Shown one piece after another: positions 2,798-8,335 of a stretch of 8,335 nucleotides of DNA (position 1 is its first letter; every line of letters begins with the position of its first letter). The notes below the pieces were generated by a model that was not told the origin of the DNA, did not search any database, and worked only from the letters and a program-made list of their open reading frames with translations. The position numbers were made by a program, and so were the translations under genes. This DNA is from Legionellaceae bacterium (GTDB taxonomy: Bacteria > Pseudomonadota > Gammaproteobacteria > Legionellales > Legionellaceae): assembly GCA_947474165.1 (NCBI GenBank), contig CANJHO010000121.1, forward strand, positions 1 to 8,335. The letters run 5' to 3'.

Positions 2798-2818
2798 CGA
2801 ATACATAAAATTGTTAAG

Positions 2819-2966
2819 AAACCCCTCAAAAAAGCCTGCTGAACGCGGGCTTTTTGCATTCTTAAGCATGGTTAGCTGAGATTGCATAAACGCAGTACAG
2901 CGTGGATTTGAGGTGTTTTTAGTGGTGTGTCAAAAACCCACAGTATTTGCATATAAACCCCTCAAA
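2819..2966. repeat. Three clustered copies of the 12-mer AAACCCCTCAAA (two direct, one inverted)
   Basis: Exact copies at 2819-2830 and 2955-2966. An inverted 11/12 copy, TTTGAGGTGTTT, lies at 2907-2918. All are in the non-coding region upstream of the short recombinase gene. Confidence 0.6.
2828..2855 (+). terminator. Rho-independent terminator, bidirectional-looking
   Basis: A-run 2828-2833, stem GCCTGC (2834-2839), loop TGAAC, stem GCGGGC (2845-2850, one G.U pair), T-run 2851-2855. Confidence 0.8.
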
Positions 2967-3075
2967 TTCTTAGTCAATTTGTTGTCTAGATCTCACATAA
3001 AACAGCTAAATATTAAGCGTAGTGTGCATATAAGAAAAATATGCTTTTCTTTTGTGAATGATGCAAGTCGTTGAT

Positions 3076-3095
3076 TCTTGGAAGATCTTGGAAGT
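3076..3095. repeat. Tandem decamer TCTTGGAAGA / TCTTGGAAGT
   Basis: Two adjacent 10-bp units with 9/10 identity and one helical turn of phasing. They lie 143 bp upstream of the recombinase ATG. Confidence 0.6.
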
Positions 3096-3237
3096 CCATG
3101 GTTTCGCTAAGAATCATTGGGTAAAGATGACAAATCATAAGAATTCAACTAAATCTCTTGGCAAATAGAGGTCGACCATTAGCCCATAAGAAAACAAACT
3201 ACATACATGTTTTTTATTAACTACAAAGGAAAAATAG

Positions 3238-3804
3238 ATGGCACAAGCTAAAACATTGACACCTCAAGAGCTAGATAAAGTATTGGCATACGTAGCTACA
3301 AAGAAGTACCCTGAGCGCGATAGAGCGTTGATATTGACTAGTTGCTACTCAGGTCTTCGTGTTGCTGAAATCGCCAGCTTAAAAATGCGCGATGTAGTTA
3401 ATGAAGACGGCACGATTCGCAATGAAGTACGTTTAAGCGCAGCGCAGACTAAGGGTGGACAACCTAGAACGGTATTTTTACCTAAGAAATTACAAGATGA
3501 ATTGGCGATTTATTTGGCTACTCGCTATGCCAAGTTTCCGGATGTGCCATTCTTCCATACCGCTAAAAGACTAGGATTCTCAGCGAACTCTTTATGCCAA
3601 TGGTTTTTTTGGGCTTATCGCAATGCTGGAATCGCTGGAGCTTCAAGTCATAGTGGTCGCAGAACCTTTATTACAACACTGGCAAACAAAGGTATCTCCG
3701 TAAGGGTGCTGGCTGGATTGGCGGGACATAAATCTATTGCTGTAACTCAGAAATATATCGACGTCAATCCAGATCTCATGCGTAATGCAGTGGAGTTGAT
3801 CTGA
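3238..3804 (+). CDS. Short (188 aa) catalytic-domain-only tyrosine recombinase, FimB/FimE size class
   Basis: Track ORF with an AAGGA SD upstream. Motifs: YSGLRVAEIASL (Arg I), SSHSGRRTFITTLA (His-x-x-Arg), LAGHKSIAVTQKYI (His ... Tyr nucleophile). There is no room for an N-terminal core-binding domain. Confidence 0.88.
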   Translation: MAQAKTLTPQELDKVLAYVATKKYPERDRALILTSCYSGLRVAEIASLKMRDVVNEDGTIRNEVRLSAAQTKGGQPRTVFLPKKLQDELAIYLATRYAKFPDVPFFHTAKRLGFSANSLCQWFFWAYRNAGIAGASSHSGRRTFITTLANKGISVRVLAGLAGHKSIAVTQKYIDVNPDLMRNAVELI

Positions 3805-3825: not shown

Positions 3826-4794
3826 CTAATCAGGACTTTTTTTCAAAAAAGAAAAATCATCATAATGATATTTTGCTTCTATACCTGGCCTAAGCATTTC
3901 GGCAATTTGTAAATATCCGTCTACATAATCATCGGCTTGAACCTCAACTATTCTTGCACCTAAATCAGATAACATGGTTCTGATGCATTGTTGACTAACT
4001 GATTTAATCTTATTTGGCAATTCAATTGAGTAATAACTAATCCCACCAATATTAGATGGATGCTGTGCTTGTAAGCTAGCTTTTTCAGAAATTAACCACC
4101 ATAAGATAATTTCAGAGAAGTCTAAACCAAGGCCTATGATGTGAATCTGATCTTTAAGAAATACGTCTACCCATGAGTAAAGTTCACAATTTTTCTCAAA
4201 GTTAAAGTTTGGTTTTTTACCCATTAGCGGTGAGCGGACAGGTTCATTCATGTGCGCAAACTGGATTCCTTTATAAAGATAGTCCTTCACTTGCCCCATA
4301 TACTTTGCATACTGGTTATACCCCAGCAACATAGAGCTAGGTTTTTCAACGTCACCATGTATTTTCCAAAAAACTTTCTTACCATCCGTCTTCGCTCTAA
4401 ATAGTGAGTGATATTTTTCTGATACTTTTTGAAATTTAGGTGTGAATGGGTGTTTATAGCCAACGCCGCCATCTACTGAGCGGTTGTAGTTAGTTGTAAG
4501 TATATTTCTTGCTAATCCACTATAGATATCAGTTAAACGATTTGCTAAGCCACTTTTTGACAGAAGTTGCGCGACATCTTTTATTAATTCATTAGGATCT
4601 TTTCCATCCCTAATTAGTTGCAGCCTAATTTTCTCAAATACTAAAGGTAATGGTTTCTGGTTTAGGTCATAGACTGGTACCGAGAATCGTTCTGATAATT
4701 TATTTAAAATATCCTCCCACGATAAGCCACCAAAAGTTGGTTCTAAAGAGCGTGTGATTCCATTGCCAAGTAAAACTGTATTTTTAATAGCCAT
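3826..4794 (-). CDS. SIR2-like (SIR2_2 / ThsA-type) protein, 322 aa, putative NAD+ glycohydrolase effector
   Basis: Track ORF with an AAGGA SD 6 nt before ATG 4794. Ordered motifs: VLLGNGITRS..LSWEDIL, ILTTNYN (Asn102, codon 4489-4491), WKIHGD (His146, codon 4357-4359) and IHIIGLGLDFSEIILWW. No additional domain is apparent. Confidence 0.8.
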   Translation of the reverse strand: MAIKNTVLLGNGITRSLEPTFGGLSWEDILNKLSERFSVPVYDLNQKPLPLVFEKIRLQLIRDGKDPNELIKDVAQLLSKSGLANRLTDIYSGLARNILTTNYNRSVDGGVGYKHPFTPKFQKVSEKYHSLFRAKTDGKKVFWKIHGDVEKPSSMLLGYNQYAKYMGQVKDYLYKGIQFAHMNEPVRSPLMGKKPNFNFEKNCELYSWVDVFLKDQIHIIGLGLDFSEIILWWLISEKASLQAQHPSNIGGISYYSIELPNKIKSVSQQCIRTMLSDLGARIVEVQADDYVDGYLQIAEMLRPGIEAKYHYDDFSFLKKSPD

Positions 4795-4819: not shown

Positions 4820-5551
4820 TTATTCAATTGATGGGAACTTCAGTCTTGCCGCGTTGTAAACCAGTCTCTCCGCCTGCTCTTTATATCTACTGGCAGCCAT
4901 TTGACGTCTTTGCTTCTCTTGCTCTGCGCTATTAGATTCTTGAACTTTTCTACCAAGGTGGATTTCAGCTAGTTTCGCTCTTTGCGCTAGTTGATAGAGC
5001 TGAATATCAGGGTTGCGGTAAAGGATTTCTGCAACGTCTACTAGGATTGGGATGGTTTTATGTTGTAGCTTAGTAGTTTCGAGTTGGACTAAAGCAGTAC
5101 TTTGAGCCCTCACGTCCAAGTTCTTGCCATCATGATGTTCGTCTAAGAGCTTGTTAATTTGCTCAAGTATGGTCACTCGTCGTAAATTCAATGGAATGTC
5201 GAGAATTAAGAAATTTTTTGGTTCGACTTCTAATTTATTTAAAACTTCAGCCTGGTCAATTGCGCGAACTTTAGAGTATTGATGCCGCTCGCTAAAAATG
5301 CGCTTACCGATATTTCCCCACCATTGTGCCCACGAGACATTTACATCTCCGAATAAGGCATAGGTATCTGCAAGAGCGTGGTTTTTACCGCCTTTTGAAC
5401 AACATTCTAGGTATTCATTGCTGGCATTAAGACAGCGCCACCATTCGTAGTACAGCGTATCTTTGGCTTTGCGCCAATCATCTACTGTTGAACGACCTTT
5501 GCGAAGTCCGCCGGGAATCTCTTTATAGAGCCCCAATTTTTCATCTGACAT
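4820..5551 (-). CDS. Unknown 243-aa protein, upstream operon partner of the SIR2-like gene
   Basis: Track ORF, 25 nt upstream of the SIR2-like gene and co-directional with it. Trp-rich N-terminal half (DDWRKAKDTLYYEWWRCLNASNEY, SWAQWWGNIGKR) and a charged helical C-terminal tail (EQEKQRRQMAASRYKEQAERL). Weak SD (AGG). No family confidently recognised. Confidence 0.75.
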   Translation of the reverse strand: MSDEKLGLYKEIPGGLRKGRSTVDDWRKAKDTLYYEWWRCLNASNEYLECCSKGGKNHALADTYALFGDVNVSWAQWWGNIGKRIFSERHQYSKVRAIDQAEVLNKLEVEPKNFLILDIPLNLRRVTILEQINKLLDEHHDGKNLDVRAQSTALVQLETTKLQHKTIPILVDVAEILYRNPDIQLYQLAQRAKLAEIHLGRKVQESNSAEQEKQRRQMAASRYKEQAERLVYNAARLKFPSIE

Positions 5552-5646: not shown

Positions 5647-5686
5647 ATTAACAAAACTGACATAAATCAACTGTTCATCCGAAAAA
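5647..5686 (+). promoter_or_regulatory. Partial (first 40 bp) copy of the conserved array element, in the divergent intergenic region
   Basis: ATTAACAAAACTGACATAAATCAACTGTTCATCCGAAAAA matches about 31/40 positions of 6650-6689. The internal spacing is identical: TTCATCCGAAAA begins 27 nt after ATTAAC in both. Confidence 0.6.
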
Positions 5687-5745
5687 GACCCCTATTTTTA
5701 TAGACTCATATAGCGAAATAACTCGCATAACAATGGAGAAACAAG

Positions 5746-6588
5746 ATGAAAAAGAATGGAAAGTTATTAGTAGAGCAAGTGTTATCAGAAGGGGATTTAC
5801 TGGCACAGCAGCAAGTTGATTTTTACGATAACTACATTGTGAAAGCAAACGACGTTTTATATGGGCTATTGGCTGATTTAATGCGATATAGCGATCAGGT
5901 TCTGGGGTCTGACTATAAGCTAGAAATTCTATCCAAAATGCGCAGTACTTTATCAACCAAGCACCATATCAAAGTTCAAAAAAATACCCCAGATCTGACC
6001 ATTATTGTGAAATATGTAGTGCGCACTAATCGTAAAAATGCGCACGTTTATGCCAGAGTGCTTGATATGGCTTATAGACAGGATGTAATGGCTGATGAGC
6101 TAGAAGATTTCATACGCCAAAACGGAGGAATTGACCGTATTCGCGAAAGTAATGTGAATTTAGAAGGCGTACAAAAGCGCAAAAGTGAAGATGAGGGTAG
6201 GACAAAGCTTGTGAAAGCACTTTTAAACATAAAAGCTGAAACGCCTATGGCTGAGTTTAGGATTCCAGGCGAATGGACCAGTCAAGTACATGATTCGCAT
6301 GGTGTTGGCTCATTTCTATATCCCATTTGCGCCAAAGTTGATGGAATTTACAAAGTAGTAGGGATTGTTCCTATGGATTATGAGTTTGAGGAGCAAATTC
6401 TTAAACGGGTAATAGTGGACATTGGCAGCAAAGGGAGTTATTCAGAAATTGAAAAACAGCAATTTGCAAAAGCAAAAGAGATGATTTCGCCTGCTTATCA
6501 ACTCAAGATACAAGAGGAGCGCGATAGGGTTGATGAACAACGTCGAGCCAAAAAGCTGACTCTCCAGCCGCTACCAATGGCTGCATGA
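5746..6588 (+). CDS. Hypothetical protein, 280 aa, first gene of the plus-strand array
   Basis: Track ORF with a GGAGA SD 6 nt upstream of the ATG. Charged C-terminal region (EERDRVDEQRRAKK); the protein ends ...PLPMAA. No family recognised. Confidence 0.8.
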   Translation: MKKNGKLLVEQVLSEGDLLAQQQVDFYDNYIVKANDVLYGLLADLMRYSDQVLGSDYKLEILSKMRSTLSTKHHIKVQKNTPDLTIIVKYVVRTNRKNAHVYARVLDMAYRQDVMADELEDFIRQNGGIDRIRESNVNLEGVQKRKSEDEGRTKLVKALLNIKAETPMAEFRIPGEWTSQVHDSHGVGSFLYPICAKVDGIYKVVGIVPMDYEFEEQILKRVIVDIGSKGSYSEIEKQQFAKAKEMISPAYQLKIQEERDRVDEQRRAKKLTLQPLPMAA

Positions 6589-6612
6589 AACAAGTGTTAC
6601 TTGCAGTAACGG

Positions 6613-6634
6613 TGCCACCTTCGGGTGGCATTTT
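6613..6634 (+). terminator. Rho-independent terminator TGCCACC-TTCG-GGTGGCA-TTTT (copy 1 of 3)
   Basis: Perfect 7-bp stem, UUCG tetraloop and T-run, starting 24 nt after stop 6588. The same 22-mer occurs at 7183 and 7738. Confidence 0.9.
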
Positions 6635-6649
6635 CGTTAAAAGCTATCG

Positions 6650-6720
6650 ATTAACAAACTTGATTCGAATTGATTGTTCATCCGAAAAACAGGTCAAAAC
6701 GCCTATCTTACGTATATGGG
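6650..6720 (+). promoter_or_regulatory. Conserved 71-bp upstream element (copy 1), candidate promoter/operator/leader
   Basis: Starts exactly 37 nt after the terminator start and ends in TATCTTACGTATATGGG. Aligns without indels to 7220-7290 (about 59/71) and 7775-7845 (about 64/71). Confidence 0.7.
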
Positions 6721-6758
6721 TTACCGCACTTGGTGGCTCTCAACTAAAGGAGAATTAA

Positions 6759-7175
6759 ATGAGTAATAAATCTTATGTAATTGCAGTCAATATGATTCCT
6801 TATGGCATCAAGATGGTAGTTAAATCTACGACAGATTTTGTAGATGCGATTGTTAATGAATTTGAGAGGTTGGTAAATAGTGATCATGAAAAAGCCGATG
6901 GTTACCACTTAGTGCTTAAAGCAAAGCTGTTACGTGAAGATGCATTTTTTAATAAACATCCTAAGGCAGCGCACGTTCAGAAAGAAAGATGGGGTAAGTT
7001 TTGCGATCTTTGCGTTGATTTTGCCGCTCTTAATACGGTTTTATACAAAGAGCCGATATATCTAGTGCATCCGGAGCAATTTGATGAGCAGCGTGCTCGC
7101 GGCTTATTGGATCTGTCGTCTGCTGGAGGGGTAGATCTGATTCCAGAGGTTCCTGTAATGCGATTAGCAGCTTAG
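6759..7175 (+). CDS. Hypothetical protein, 138 aa
   Basis: Track ORF with an AAGGAGA SD 5 nt upstream. It is followed 7 nt later by a terminator copy. The protein ends ...VMRLAA. Confidence 0.8.
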   Translation: MSNKSYVIAVNMIPYGIKMVVKSTTDFVDAIVNEFERLVNSDHEKADGYHLVLKAKLLREDAFFNKHPKAAHVQKERWGKFCDLCVDFAALNTVLYKEPIYLVHPEQFDEQRARGLLDLSSAGGVDLIPEVPVMRLAA

Positions 7176-7182
7176 TAATAGA

Positions 7183-7204
7183 TGCCACCTTCGGGTGGCA
7201 TTTT
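7183..7204 (+). terminator. Rho-independent terminator, identical copy 2
   Basis: TGCCACCTTCGGGTGGCATTTT, starting 7 nt after stop 7175. Confidence 0.9.
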
Positions 7205-7219
7205 CTATCGGTTTCGGCA

Positions 7220-7290
7220 ATTAACAGAGTTGATTTGAATTAGTTATTCATCCGAAAAGTAGGTCGAAACGAATATCTTACATATATGGG
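7220..7290 (+). promoter_or_regulatory. Conserved 71-bp upstream element (copy 2)
   Basis: Has the same 37-nt offset from the terminator start and the same length, and ends in TATCTTACATATATGGG. Confidence 0.7.
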
Positions 7291-7331
7291 CTGTCGCTCT
7301 TGAGAGCCTTAATTAAATAGGAGAAGTTGAA

Positions 7332-7730
7332 ATGAGCATTGAGAAAATGTTGTCTATTAGCCTGGCAAATCTTGATGTAGATTGCACTATCGAGGTTCCA
7401 GTAGATATGTTCTTTGAGCTGCTTGAAAACACACCAGATTTGGTTGGGCGGTTTGGTTTTGAGAGTTCTATGAGTCAGTGGCTTGAAATGCTGTCTATGG
7501 TTAAGGCTGAATATAAAGAAGTTGGAAATTGTGATTGGTCCAAAGCTAATGCCGATGAAGAAGTTTTCTTAAGACGCTGTCAAATCGTTGTGGCTCTTGG
7601 GGCGCATTTGAAAGATATTCCCTTAATGTTATCCGGAAAAGGTTTGGTAGATTTTATTGAGGATATGGGCGGCATAGAGGTCACCGAACAGGTTTTGAAT
7701 GGCTCTCTACCCATAGAAAACTTTGCTTAA
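7332..7730 (+). CDS. Hypothetical strongly acidic protein, 132 aa
   Basis: Track ORF with an AGGAGA SD 7 nt upstream. By my count it has about 23 Asp/Glu against 9 Lys/Arg. Confidence 0.8.
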   Translation: MSIEKMLSISLANLDVDCTIEVPVDMFFELLENTPDLVGRFGFESSMSQWLEMLSMVKAEYKEVGNCDWSKANADEEVFLRRCQIVVALGAHLKDIPLMLSGKGLVDFIEDMGGIEVTEQVLNGSLPIENFA

Positions 7731-7737
7731 GTTTTAG

Positions 7738-7760
7738 TGCCACCTTCGGGTGGCATTTTT
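7738..7760 (+). terminator. Rho-independent terminator, identical copy 3
   Basis: TGCCACCTTCGGGTGGCATTTTT, starting 7 nt after stop 7730. Confidence 0.9.
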
Positions 7761-7774
7761 GTTTATATCTATTG

Positions 7775-7845
7775 ATTAACAAACTCGATTTGAATTGATT
7801 GTTTACCCGAAAAGTAGGTCAAAACGCCTATCTTAGGTATATGGG
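7775..7845 (+). promoter_or_regulatory. Conserved 71-bp upstream element (copy 3)
   Basis: Has the same 37-nt offset and ends in TATCTTAGGTATATGGG. Confidence 0.7.
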
Positions 7846-7885
7846 TTATCAATCTTGATGGCCTTCAATAAAAAAGGAGAAATGC

Positions 7886-8335
7886 ATGTGTAATTGCAAA
7901 CATACGGCAGCAGACTTTAAATTAGCAAGTGAAGCACCATTTAACTCCACTCTTATAGAGGTGGATTCTGAGTGGATGGAAATTGGATTGCAAGATGTTG
8001 AATATATGGAAGAGAATTTCCCAGATACCTTCTCAATTCCGGAAAAGGAGATTCGTGAGTCAATCCCCGTGGGAATGATGGCTAAGGTGATTGTTGATTG
8101 GGGAATTGAGGATGTTCCAAATGAGCGATTTTGGTTTGAGGTCACTTCATCGCAAGTAGATGATGTGGGCAACTTGGCGTACTTTGGAGTTTTGCGTAAT
8201 GACACCATTGTTGCCCCTTGGGGTGCAATGATGGGCCCTATCTACGCCTGGAATATCTGTGATGTTGATGCAGAGGAGTACTTTAATCGAAATACAGTTG
8301 GATGTTCCTGTGATCGGTGTCAGCAGATCGAATTA
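7886..8335 (+). CDS. Hypothetical acidic Cys-containing protein, N-terminal 150 aa (3' end off window)
   Basis: Hand-translated: MCNCKHTAADFKLASEAPFNSTLIEVDSEWMEIGLQDVEYMEENFPDTFSIPEKEIRESIPVGMMAKVIVDWGIEDVPNERFWFEVTSSQVDDVGNLAYFGVLRNDTIVAPWGAMMGPIYAWNICDVDAEEYFNRNTVGCSCDRCQQIEL... The frame is open for 150 codons to the window end. A GGAGA SD lies 5 nt upstream, at the same module position as for the other array genes. It is absent from the track only because no stop is reached. Confidence 0.8.
   Translation, partial: MCNCKHTAADFKLASEAPFNSTLIEVDSEWMEIGLQDVEYMEENFPDTFSIPEKEIRESIPVGMMAKVIVDWGIEDVPNERFWFEVTSSQVDDVGNLAYFGVLRNDTIVAPWGAMMGPIYAWNICDVDAEEYFNRNTVGCSCDRCQQIEL

Follow-up and report, generated by a model that had tools for sequence, protein, structure and literature searches.

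A repeated module with terminator-like, promoter-like and leader parts in a cassette array of a Polynucleobacter integrative island

The window analysed here is the whole 8,335-nucleotide (nt) contig CANJHO010000121.1 of assembly GCA_947474165.1, filed under a Legionellaceae bacterium. It contains a repeated module, formed by a terminator-like hairpin, a promoter-like region and a leader, which separates the genes of a plus-strand array located after a gene of 243 amino acids (aa). The array comprises genes of 280, 138, 132, 152 and 205 aa, the last one lying beyond the window end. The window is 99.99% identical to a metagenome contig of the European Nucleotide Archive (L005; related loci are designated by L numbers) and 97.9% identical to contig LOJJ01000004 of Polynucleobacter sinensis MWH-HuW1; L002 is the P. 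sinensis locus. It is part of an integrative island of ~11 kb, with a low guanine-plus-cytosine content (GC, 38-40%), in the chromosome of Polynucleobacter, a freshwater betaproteobacterium. The chromosomal neighbours of the island differ between contigs and genomes, indicating different insertion sites; in L005 the right neighbour is a lactate permease gene. The preliminary description of this DNA had proposed a mobile element, in agreement with the low GC of the island, its tyrosine integrase and its different chromosomal sites in different genomes.

The 22-mer TGCCACCTTCGGGTGGCATTTT (TGCCACC-TTCG-GGTGGCA-TTTT) starts at positions 6613, 7183 and 7738, and opens three units, m1 (6613-6758), m2 (7183-7331) and m3 (7738-7885), which a repeat search of the window joined in one 137-nt repeat family. 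A conserved block starts at 6650, 7220 and 7775, each time exactly 37 nt past the start of the hairpin. Over its 71 bp the ungapped identity is 83.1% for m1 and m2, 90.1% for m1 and m3 and 81.7% for m2 and m3, and the ATG codons at 6759, 7332 and 7886 follow it by 39, 42 and 41 nt. The shared hairpin, the block without indels at about 82-90% identity and the distance of about 39-42 nt to the Shine-Dalgarno sequence (SD) and ATG had all been described beforehand, and these measurements reproduce them. A 23-base core pattern with at most three mismatches has four matches in the window and none in 200 dinucleotide-preserving shuffles. The observation is thus real and the unit looks functional.

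The count of three copies was too low. The fourth match is module m0 (5647-5745), with its core at 5647-5684, the -10-like hexamer TAGACT at 5701-5706, a GCGA/TCGC stem-loop at 5713-5726 and an SD before the ATG at 5746. It precedes the 280-aa gene (5746-6588), the conserved first gene of the array, for which neither a family nor a structural match was found. Module m0 lacks an upstream terminator because it is located in a divergent intergenic region, 194 nt long and common to the 243-aa gene. A fifth and more diverged copy, m4, is placed ~60 nt past the window end, before the 205-aa gene (L002 8290-8453; L005 8387), and has a different and longer terminator hairpin, GATAAGTGGTTGC-TATA-GCAACCACTTATC. 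The sixth class, mL, is found at the left end of the island in L011, L013 and L016, before an acidic open reading frame (ORF) of 80 aa that precedes the integrase gene, and has no TGCCACC hairpin.

Between the 280-aa gene and the window end the features alternate, all on the plus strand. Hairpin 1 (6613-6634, -14.7 kcal/mol, followed by TTTT) leads to the predicted promoter and 5' untranslated region (5' UTR) of module 1 (6650-6758), with the core at 6650-6687, a 16-nt spacer, TATCTT at 6704-6709, a stem-loop at 6718-6739 and the SD, GGAG, at 6749-6752, and then to the 138-aa cassette gene (6759-7175). Hairpin 2 (7183-7204, -15.7 kcal/mol, TTTT) and predicted module 2 (7220-7331; core 7220-7257, TATCTT 7274-7279, stem-loop 7288-7309, SD) precede the 132-aa cassette gene (7332-7730), whose product is very acidic with an isoelectric point (pI) of 4.2. 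Hairpin 3 (7738-7759, -14.7 kcal/mol, TTTTT) and predicted module 3 (7775-7885; core 7775-7812, TATCTT 7829-7834, stem-loop 7843-7864, SD) precede the 152-aa cassette gene, cut by the window end (7886-8335), with a pI of 4.05 and CxC/CxxC ends; some members of its UniRef cluster are named DUF2314. As had been stated from the translations, the ORFs at these boundaries (280, 138, 132 and more than 150 aa) are unrelated, forming separate BLASTP families at E<1e-5 and belonging to no Pfam family.

An ORF of 57 aa (6585-6758, plus strand), annotated publicly at L002 6537-6710 and L005 6578-6751, lies wholly on module 1. Modules 2 and 3 contain no equivalent ORF, and the gene call is probably spurious.

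The module was compared in 49 distinct sequences from 40 loci, very diverged copies included; the diverged islands L036-L041 were reached through homologues of the 280-aa protein (57-60% identity), and their modules score 16-50 bits against the profile. The layout is invariant in 49/49: a 38-nt box, a 16-nt spacer, TAnnnT, a stem-loop, GGAG and ATG. The box starts with (A/G)TTAACA(A/G)A (TTAACAAA) and ends with nCGAAA. The spacer is exactly 16 nt long and unrelated between classes (e.g. AACAGGTCAAAACGCC, AAGACCCCTATTTTTA, TTTAAGCTACCAAAAC and TGCCTATTAAGAACTA), and the hexamer stands at exactly positions 55-60 from the first core base in all 49, as TATCTT, TATCGT, TAGACT, TAATAT, TATTCT or TAAAAT. 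A box, a spacer of fixed length and free sequence and TAnnnT together make a classical bacterial promoter signature. The box has no conserved pairing: its structure is weak, shows no compensatory change and is broken in the m0 and m4 classes. A search of Rfam 15 (E<=10) with the window gave nothing at E<0.6 over the box or the leader, the only nearby match being a terminator hairpin resembling the terminator of ncS54 (E=1.1), and three related loci gave no hits at the gathering score. This lack of conserved structure and of an Rfam match fits a site bound by a protein at the DNA level. The position of m0 in a divergent region, with no co-oriented gene upstream, means that transcription of the 280-aa gene must start there.

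The stem-loop begins 7-10 nt past the hexamer. In the alignment 96.6% of the cells pair, against 27-52% when the partners are slid, and G:U pairs are frequent (UG in 13/26 and GU in 10/26) in addition to UA-to-CG double changes. The m0 and m4 classes, with unrelated sequences, still form a hairpin at the same place. The tolerance of G:U pairs points to an RNA read from the plus strand.

The terminator-like hairpins are found 5-24 nt past the stop codons, with stems of 7-10 bp, a very stable C(UUCG)G loop, folding energies from -14.7 to -15.7 kcal/mol and 4-5 T. They agree by sequence with a rho-independent terminator, being a GC-rich stem-loop with a U-tract after a stop codon, and would end transcription of the gene upstream; a simple terminator scan flags the third hairpin only. 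In diverged islands this position is held either by a GCCAC/GTGGC stem with other loops or by a 23-nt palindrome of the island.

The copies are restricted to one island family. The exact core pattern, scanned through the Genome Taxonomy Database (GTDB) with one representative genome per species, matched in four Polynucleobacter species only, always in this island; since copies were scanned by exact pattern, diverged ones elsewhere in the genomes could be missed. A looser core pattern gave 17 stretches in the Joint Genome Institute (JGI) metagenomes, 15 of which are the same island, and ~1 chance match is expected for a 21-base pattern in that collection. The other stretches, L029 and L032, lack the hexamer, hairpin and ATG geometry and were set aside as chance matches. 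With an nhmmer profile built on the module, the window yielded no additional copy and L001 yielded one, at 3543, ahead of an acidic ORF of ~70 aa. All copies are read in the same direction as the gene behind them and precede its start codon by 61-74 nt. The core-geometry pattern had no matches in viral contigs, blastn of positions 6600-7900 against plasmids and phages gave no match, and no description of the island or its repeats was found in the literature searched.

Related islands differ in the content and order of the array. The window, L002 and L005 share the order 280, 138, 132, 152 and 205, and L001 and others have one gene more, of 106 aa, after m0 and before the 280-aa gene. A 176-aa cassette is placed between 132 and 152 in L012 and L033, and the same cassette between 280 and 138 in L027. 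L026 has 280, 176 and 152, then a 261-aa P-loop-like gene and a 187-aa gene; it lacks the 138- and 132-aa cassettes, and its module before the 152-aa gene is a chimera, identical to window m1 up to GGGTTA and continuing with the m3 stem-loop. In L020 and L025 the 106- and 280-aa genes are followed directly by the 205-aa gene, located here behind a module of the main class and not behind m4. The order is 280; 145, umuD and umuC; 138; 205 in L036-38, and 280; 272 and 228 in L039-41. The same gene can stand behind up to four combinations of spacer, box, middle part and stem-loop. Cassette-specific DNA extends from about module position 75 to the stop codon, and the DNA common to the cassettes comprises the terminator hairpin, a spacer behind it and module positions 1-74. 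Homologous recombination between the direct repeats is favoured over a single-site recombinase because the junctions are not all in one place. The preliminary description had offered the repeats as homology arms for swapping cassettes and had called for related islands to be compared at the module boundaries; gain, loss and movement of cassettes are seen there, with the 176-aa cassette at two positions, deletions that leave chimeric modules, and mosaics.

The same description held that the non-coding DNA was better conserved than the coding DNA, the reverse of the usual pattern. Among orthologues this excess is mild. In close islands modules and genes are equally conserved (93-100% identical in both cases), and only the most diverged pair, that of L020, shows it, with modules 82-83% identical and the 280- and 205-aa genes 74-75%. 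The striking contrast in the window is between paralogous modules and genes that are not homologous.

These features are best accounted for, in our judgement probably correctly, by units formed by an intrinsic terminator, an island-specific promoter and a structured 5' UTR, insulated and co-regulated, whose modules also serve as substrates for recombination. Each unit would begin with the intrinsic terminator of the upstream gene and continue with the promoter, in which the 38-bp box would occupy about -66 to -29, followed by the 16-bp free spacer and TAnnnT at positions 55-60 acting as the -10 element. The predicted transcription start is at ~position 67-69 from the first core base, ~7 nt past the hexamer, so that the stem-loop would be placed at the very 5' end of the mRNA, in a 5' UTR of ~35-45 nt with the GGAG ribosome-binding site as its last element. 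Every cassette gene would be insulated from its neighbours, and one input would be common to all the cassettes and to the left-end gene next to the integrase. The ~110 bp of near-identical direct repeat would let homologous recombination delete, insert or move cassettes of promoter, gene and terminator. Insulated and identically regulated transcription units had been anticipated, and the fixed layout in 49 copies, the hairpin and T-run at each internal junction and the 5' stem-loop are consistent with them, as read from sequence. Identical regulation would here probably mean dependence on a candidate common factor, the -35 region not being of the sigma-70 type. With no TTGACA-like -35 and a long specific box, that input is most likely a dedicated activator, a repressor acting with a weak promoter, or an alternative sigma factor.

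Several points weigh against this interpretation. A sigma-70 consensus scan called no promoter in any module, no TTGACA-like -35 stands at a legal distance, and the -35 position is occupied by nCGAAA, which matches no assignable sigma consensus. The copies share their ancestry, so the 49 sequences are not 49 independent observations. The covariation of the stem-loop is modest, with two pairs showing double changes, a count reached by 314/500 shuffles. The T-runs are short (4-5 T), and termination may be partial for this reason. The recombination junctions are bracketed only between informative sites, which leaves room for site-specific exchange. Finally, no DNA-binding protein was identified: the 243-aa protein has no match in Pfam or the Protein Data Bank (PDB), and its AlphaFold2 model (predicted local distance difference test, pLDDT, 70.6) a best Foldseek PDB match of E 0.21, and the 280-aa protein has no family, with a model at pLDDT 76.6 and a best E of 0.54. 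Motifs of sigma-28, sigma-32, sigma-S, extracytoplasmic-function sigma factors, T7-like promoters, the Pho box, LexA, IHF and H-NS were compared by eye, and none fits all module classes.

The missing sigma-70 -35 and the short T-runs would also suit an element acting at the RNA level. One polycistronic mRNA would then start at m0, the hairpins would be 3' stabilisers or processing signals, and the box, which is A/U-rich, would be a site for RNase E or an RNA-binding protein, or a translational operator, setting the yield of each cistron; the conserved RNA stem-loop upstream of each SD fits this too. We consider such an arrangement unlikely. The box shows neither conserved pairing nor an Rfam match, the distance from box to ATG is kept in m0, mL and L001 3543, which have no co-oriented gene upstream, and TAnnnT placed 16 nt past the box behind a spacer of free sequence is the signature of a promoter and not of an RNA. 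Another explanation takes the modules as integron-like recombination sites of a tyrosine recombinase of the island, either the 188-aa protein (3238-3804) or the integrase (12-977). The island does encode two such enzymes, both matching only the generic Phage_integrase family at the Pfam level; the cassettes are ~0.55-0.7 kb long in a single orientation, one of them occurs at two array positions, and the left junctions, as inferred, lie in several cases within one short stretch, GTATATGGGTTA. We find this quite improbable, as imperfect inverted repeats of the attC kind and GTTRRRY/RYYYAAC boxes are both missing, the whole unit is spanned by no inverted repeat, and single-stranded DNA (ssDNA) folds of both strands give only small stems (z -1.0 to -1.8). 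Each cassette, moreover, has its own promoter-like module where integron cassettes are promoterless. The right junction coincides with the terminator hairpin or lies close to it, leaders of the same gene differ near the SD, and no single point of exchange emerges; the 188-aa recombinase lies beside its own pair of 16-nt inverted repeats, which suggests a different job.

A repeat of ~150 bp with a hairpin and several copies could in principle be selfish or neutral, like miniature inverted-repeat transposable elements (MITE), repetitive extragenic palindromic (REP) or Correia elements, and have no regulatory role. The preliminary description doubted this from the missing terminal inverted repeats and the fixed register to the start codons, and the doubt was well placed. 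The repeat lacks terminal inverted repeats, occurs in a single island family and keeps a constant strand and register to the start codon; its functional sub-elements are kept while the spacer sequence drifts, and in the most diverged pair the modules are better conserved than the genes. Instead of a genome-wide repeat unrelated to start codons, the matches to the exact pattern, which could miss diverged copies elsewhere, are in the island only and all upstream of start codons, so this explanation is largely refuted and retains hardly any probability. No more credible are single-strand promoters of the Frpo or ssi type, which belong to the leading region of a transferred element and fire from ssDNA on entering the host. 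They would go with array genes on one strand, with many very acidic products and with a umuDC cassette in relatives, leading regions being enriched for such cargo (PMC11541004). No extended ssDNA fold rebuilding a -35/-10 pair was found, nor any similarity to plasmid DNA, nor a relaxase or oriT-type gene among the called genes of the island.

If the modules are promoters depending on a dedicated factor, the 243-aa gene (4820-5551, minus strand) is of particular interest. It is divergent from m0, is conserved in all the islands and has no Pfam, PDB or Foldseek match; its product would be a candidate regulator or partner. A 244-aa homologue with 59-61% identity was observed in Limnohabitans sp. 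INBF002 (AP027055; L044 9703-10000) and in a metagenome contig (L045 9746-10000). Both islands have one or two boxes of the TTAACA(A/G)A type (TTAACAAA) in the divergent intergenic region beside the homologue, and no repeated modules between the small genes downstream. Module m0 may thus be the original promoter, from which the copies at the cassettes arose in Polynucleobacter.

Genes of eight or nine unrelated families are found behind the module. The proteins of 280, 138, 132, 152, 205, 176, 106 and 80 aa have no family in Pfam, PHROGs, NCBIfam or PADLOC, the cassette proteins had no match in a PDB sequence search, and neither the 205- nor the 280-aa protein had a tblastn match among phages and plasmids. 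Their source names are all "hypothetical" and all the named members are from Polynucleobacter. Very acidic proteins are frequent, 6/9 having a pI of 4.05-4.3 and a net charge of -7 to -20. In L036 (6814-9049) and L037 (5675-7910) one module precedes three genes, encoding a 145-aa protein, a UmuD-like protein (Peptidase_S24) and a UmuC-like Y-family polymerase (IMS). The leading regions of plasmids are enriched for accessory cargo of this kind (PMC11541004). The acidic proteins and the umuDC cassette recall the establishment and anti-defence genes of such regions, a resemblance that is only suggestive. The logic of anti-defence clusters in leading regions, invoked in the preliminary description, therefore stands in part: acidic small proteins are present, with umuDC in relatives, but no oriT, relaxase or Frpo-like ssDNA structure was found. 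As a more tentative suggestion, which we would not hold as likely, a dedicated transcription factor or sigma-like protein, encoded by the island or by a helper element, could use the modules as its set of operators and promoters, with the 243-aa protein as the obvious candidate, switching on an "establishment regulon" in one step. This regulon would comprise the left-end gene and the shuffleable array of acidic, possibly anti-defence proteins, together with umuDC in relatives.

The left part of the window contains the tyrosine integrase gene (12-977, Phage_integrase family), two tiny ORFs on the minus strand, a gene for a DUF6641 protein of 150 aa, a 153-aa gene, a gene for a FimB/E-sized tyrosine recombinase of 188 aa (3238-3804, Phage_integrase family) and one for a SIR2_2-like protein of 322 aa (3826-4794, minus strand) with weak ThsA-type matches in PADLOC. 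The slot between the 188-aa recombinase and the 243-aa gene (3826-4794 in the window) varies in content, with the SIR2_2-like gene here, an unrelated gene of 307 or 311 aa in L001 and L026, and genes of 257 and 284 aa in L036, and may be an exchangeable position for defence-type cargo. The 153-aa gene and two intergenic regions of ~400 nt are bracketed by a 16-nt inverted repeat, GGGCGACCTCTATTTG and CAAATAGAGGTCGACC, at 1988-2003 and 3162-3177, which adjoins the 188-aa recombinase gene and is kept in diverged islands. This arrangement suggests an invertible segment; the orientation was the same in 9/9 loci. The long non-coding stretches flanking the 153-aa gene (1931-2335, ~400 nt, and 2798-3237, ~440 nt) have no Rfam match past the threshold, only noise at E>7 at 2222-2306 and 2826-2894.

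A near-perfect palindrome, (C)AAGCGTTACTTnAAGTAAYGCTT(G), was identified at 1439-1473, with an RNA hairpin of -22.8 kcal/mol, and further copies at L002 9222-9240, L011 6710-6728 and 7210-7228, and L037 7908-7930. They stand at landmarks of the islands, namely at the left border and behind the 80-aa ORF, the pair of small minus-strand ORFs and the 205-aa gene, and in L037 the palindrome takes the place of the terminator behind umuC. Possible roles are a terminator-like hairpin working in both directions and an operator bound by a protein.

At the island ends a search for tRNA and tmRNA genes found none. The right ends of two diverged islands, L037 (~9430-9470) and L039 (~11660-11700), have a tRNA/tmRNA-like 3' end (..GGTTCAAGTCCGCGAGGGCCCACCA), as would be expected for the att duplication of a tRNA-type integration site; ARAGORN found no complete tRNA or tmRNA gene in the loci carrying it. 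To the right of the P. sinensis island the GC is 57-65% (L002 9700-17682), far from what is usual in Polynucleobacter, against 38-40% in the island, and the island is thus within a mosaic of foreign DNA.

The reading of the modules as parts of insulated, co-regulated and shuffleable units is well supported by their geometry and the comparative data. They would constitute a compact natural "plug-and-play" expression unit, in which a 38-bp box and a -10 hexamer stand between a terminator on one side and a stabilising 5' hairpin on the other, and their clear phylogenetic footprint should lead to the regulator. About ten ORFan families are flagged as a putative co-regulated set, several of them extremely acidic and candidates for anti-defence or establishment functions. 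Cultured carriers exist, P. sinensis MWH-HuW1 and P. sphagniphilus, so that these predictions are directly testable. An establishment regulon, if it exists, would be the chromosomal-island counterpart of plasmid leading regions and phage early regions, with the promoter as the vehicle of cassette exchange.

Among known systems, integrons such as the Vibrio VCR arrays also have arrays of short unrelated genes in one orientation, separated by a repeat more alike than the genes, and their content likewise differs between strains. Their attC sites, however, are folded imperfect palindromes recombined by IntI at a fixed point and their cassettes are promoterless, whereas the island repeat is non-palindromic, resembles a promoter in its layout and has its junctions at different points. 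The morons of temperate phages are extra genes with their own promoter and terminator. They resemble the cassettes as autonomous units of promoter, gene and terminator between other genes of a mobile element, but they are individually different, while the island units all share one repeated, co-evolving module. In the anti-defence islands of plasmid leading regions, Frpo is an extended ssDNA hairpin beside oriT, which rebuilds the -35, the -10 and the UP element in imitation of a sigma-70 promoter (Samuel et al. 2024, PMC11541004). Points in common are a series of small accessory genes in one orientation, the repetition of a promoter element before each of them, umuDC and possibly the anti-defence-like acidic proteins; no such fold, similarity or transfer genes were found in this island.

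Of all known systems the closest is the promoter-early stem-loop (PeSL) cassette found in T4-type phages (Arbiol et al. 2010, PMC2839356; Comeau et al. 2014, PMC4122927). PeSLs are composite motifs of ~100 bp, with a promoter and a stem-loop, that precede ORFans in hyperplastic regions. Genes are inserted, deleted and replaced through the recombination that they mediate, which leaves chimeric motifs, and their promoter and terminator activity and mini-circles were shown experimentally (PMC2839356, PMC4122927). Homologous recombination of direct repeats, favoured above for the island, is also what has been proposed for PeSLs. Both elements measure ~100 bp or more, have a promoter and an SD in addition to a stem-loop that terminates or attenuates transcription and an upstream region rich in AT (parts identified by sequence only in the island), and stand directly before ORFans where the gene content is plastic. 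The limits of indels and replacements coincide with the motif in both elements, chimeras are left behind, and a shuffled gene would bring its own promoter and terminator. PeSLs, in contrast, have the sigma-70 consensus -35 and -10 (TTGACA, TATAAT), where the island modules have the specific 38-bp box instead of a -35. Their stem-loop varies in position over five subclasses, whereas the island terminator stands at a constant 37 nt upstream, with a further, conserved hairpin in the 5' UTR. They are found in lytic phages, whereas the modules belong to a chromosomal island with an integrase and no match to phages or viral contigs; and they have experimentally shown activity and mini-circles, whereas the activity of the island modules is predicted from sequence. 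If our interpretation holds, the PeSL principle of a promoter-terminator cassette acting as both insulator and recombination handle would not be peculiar to T4-type phages: an abundant freshwater bacterium would use it too, in a chromosomal island of small size. The principle is already known from phages; the island offers a clean chromosomal example, in a culturable host and with a sharply defined candidate operator.

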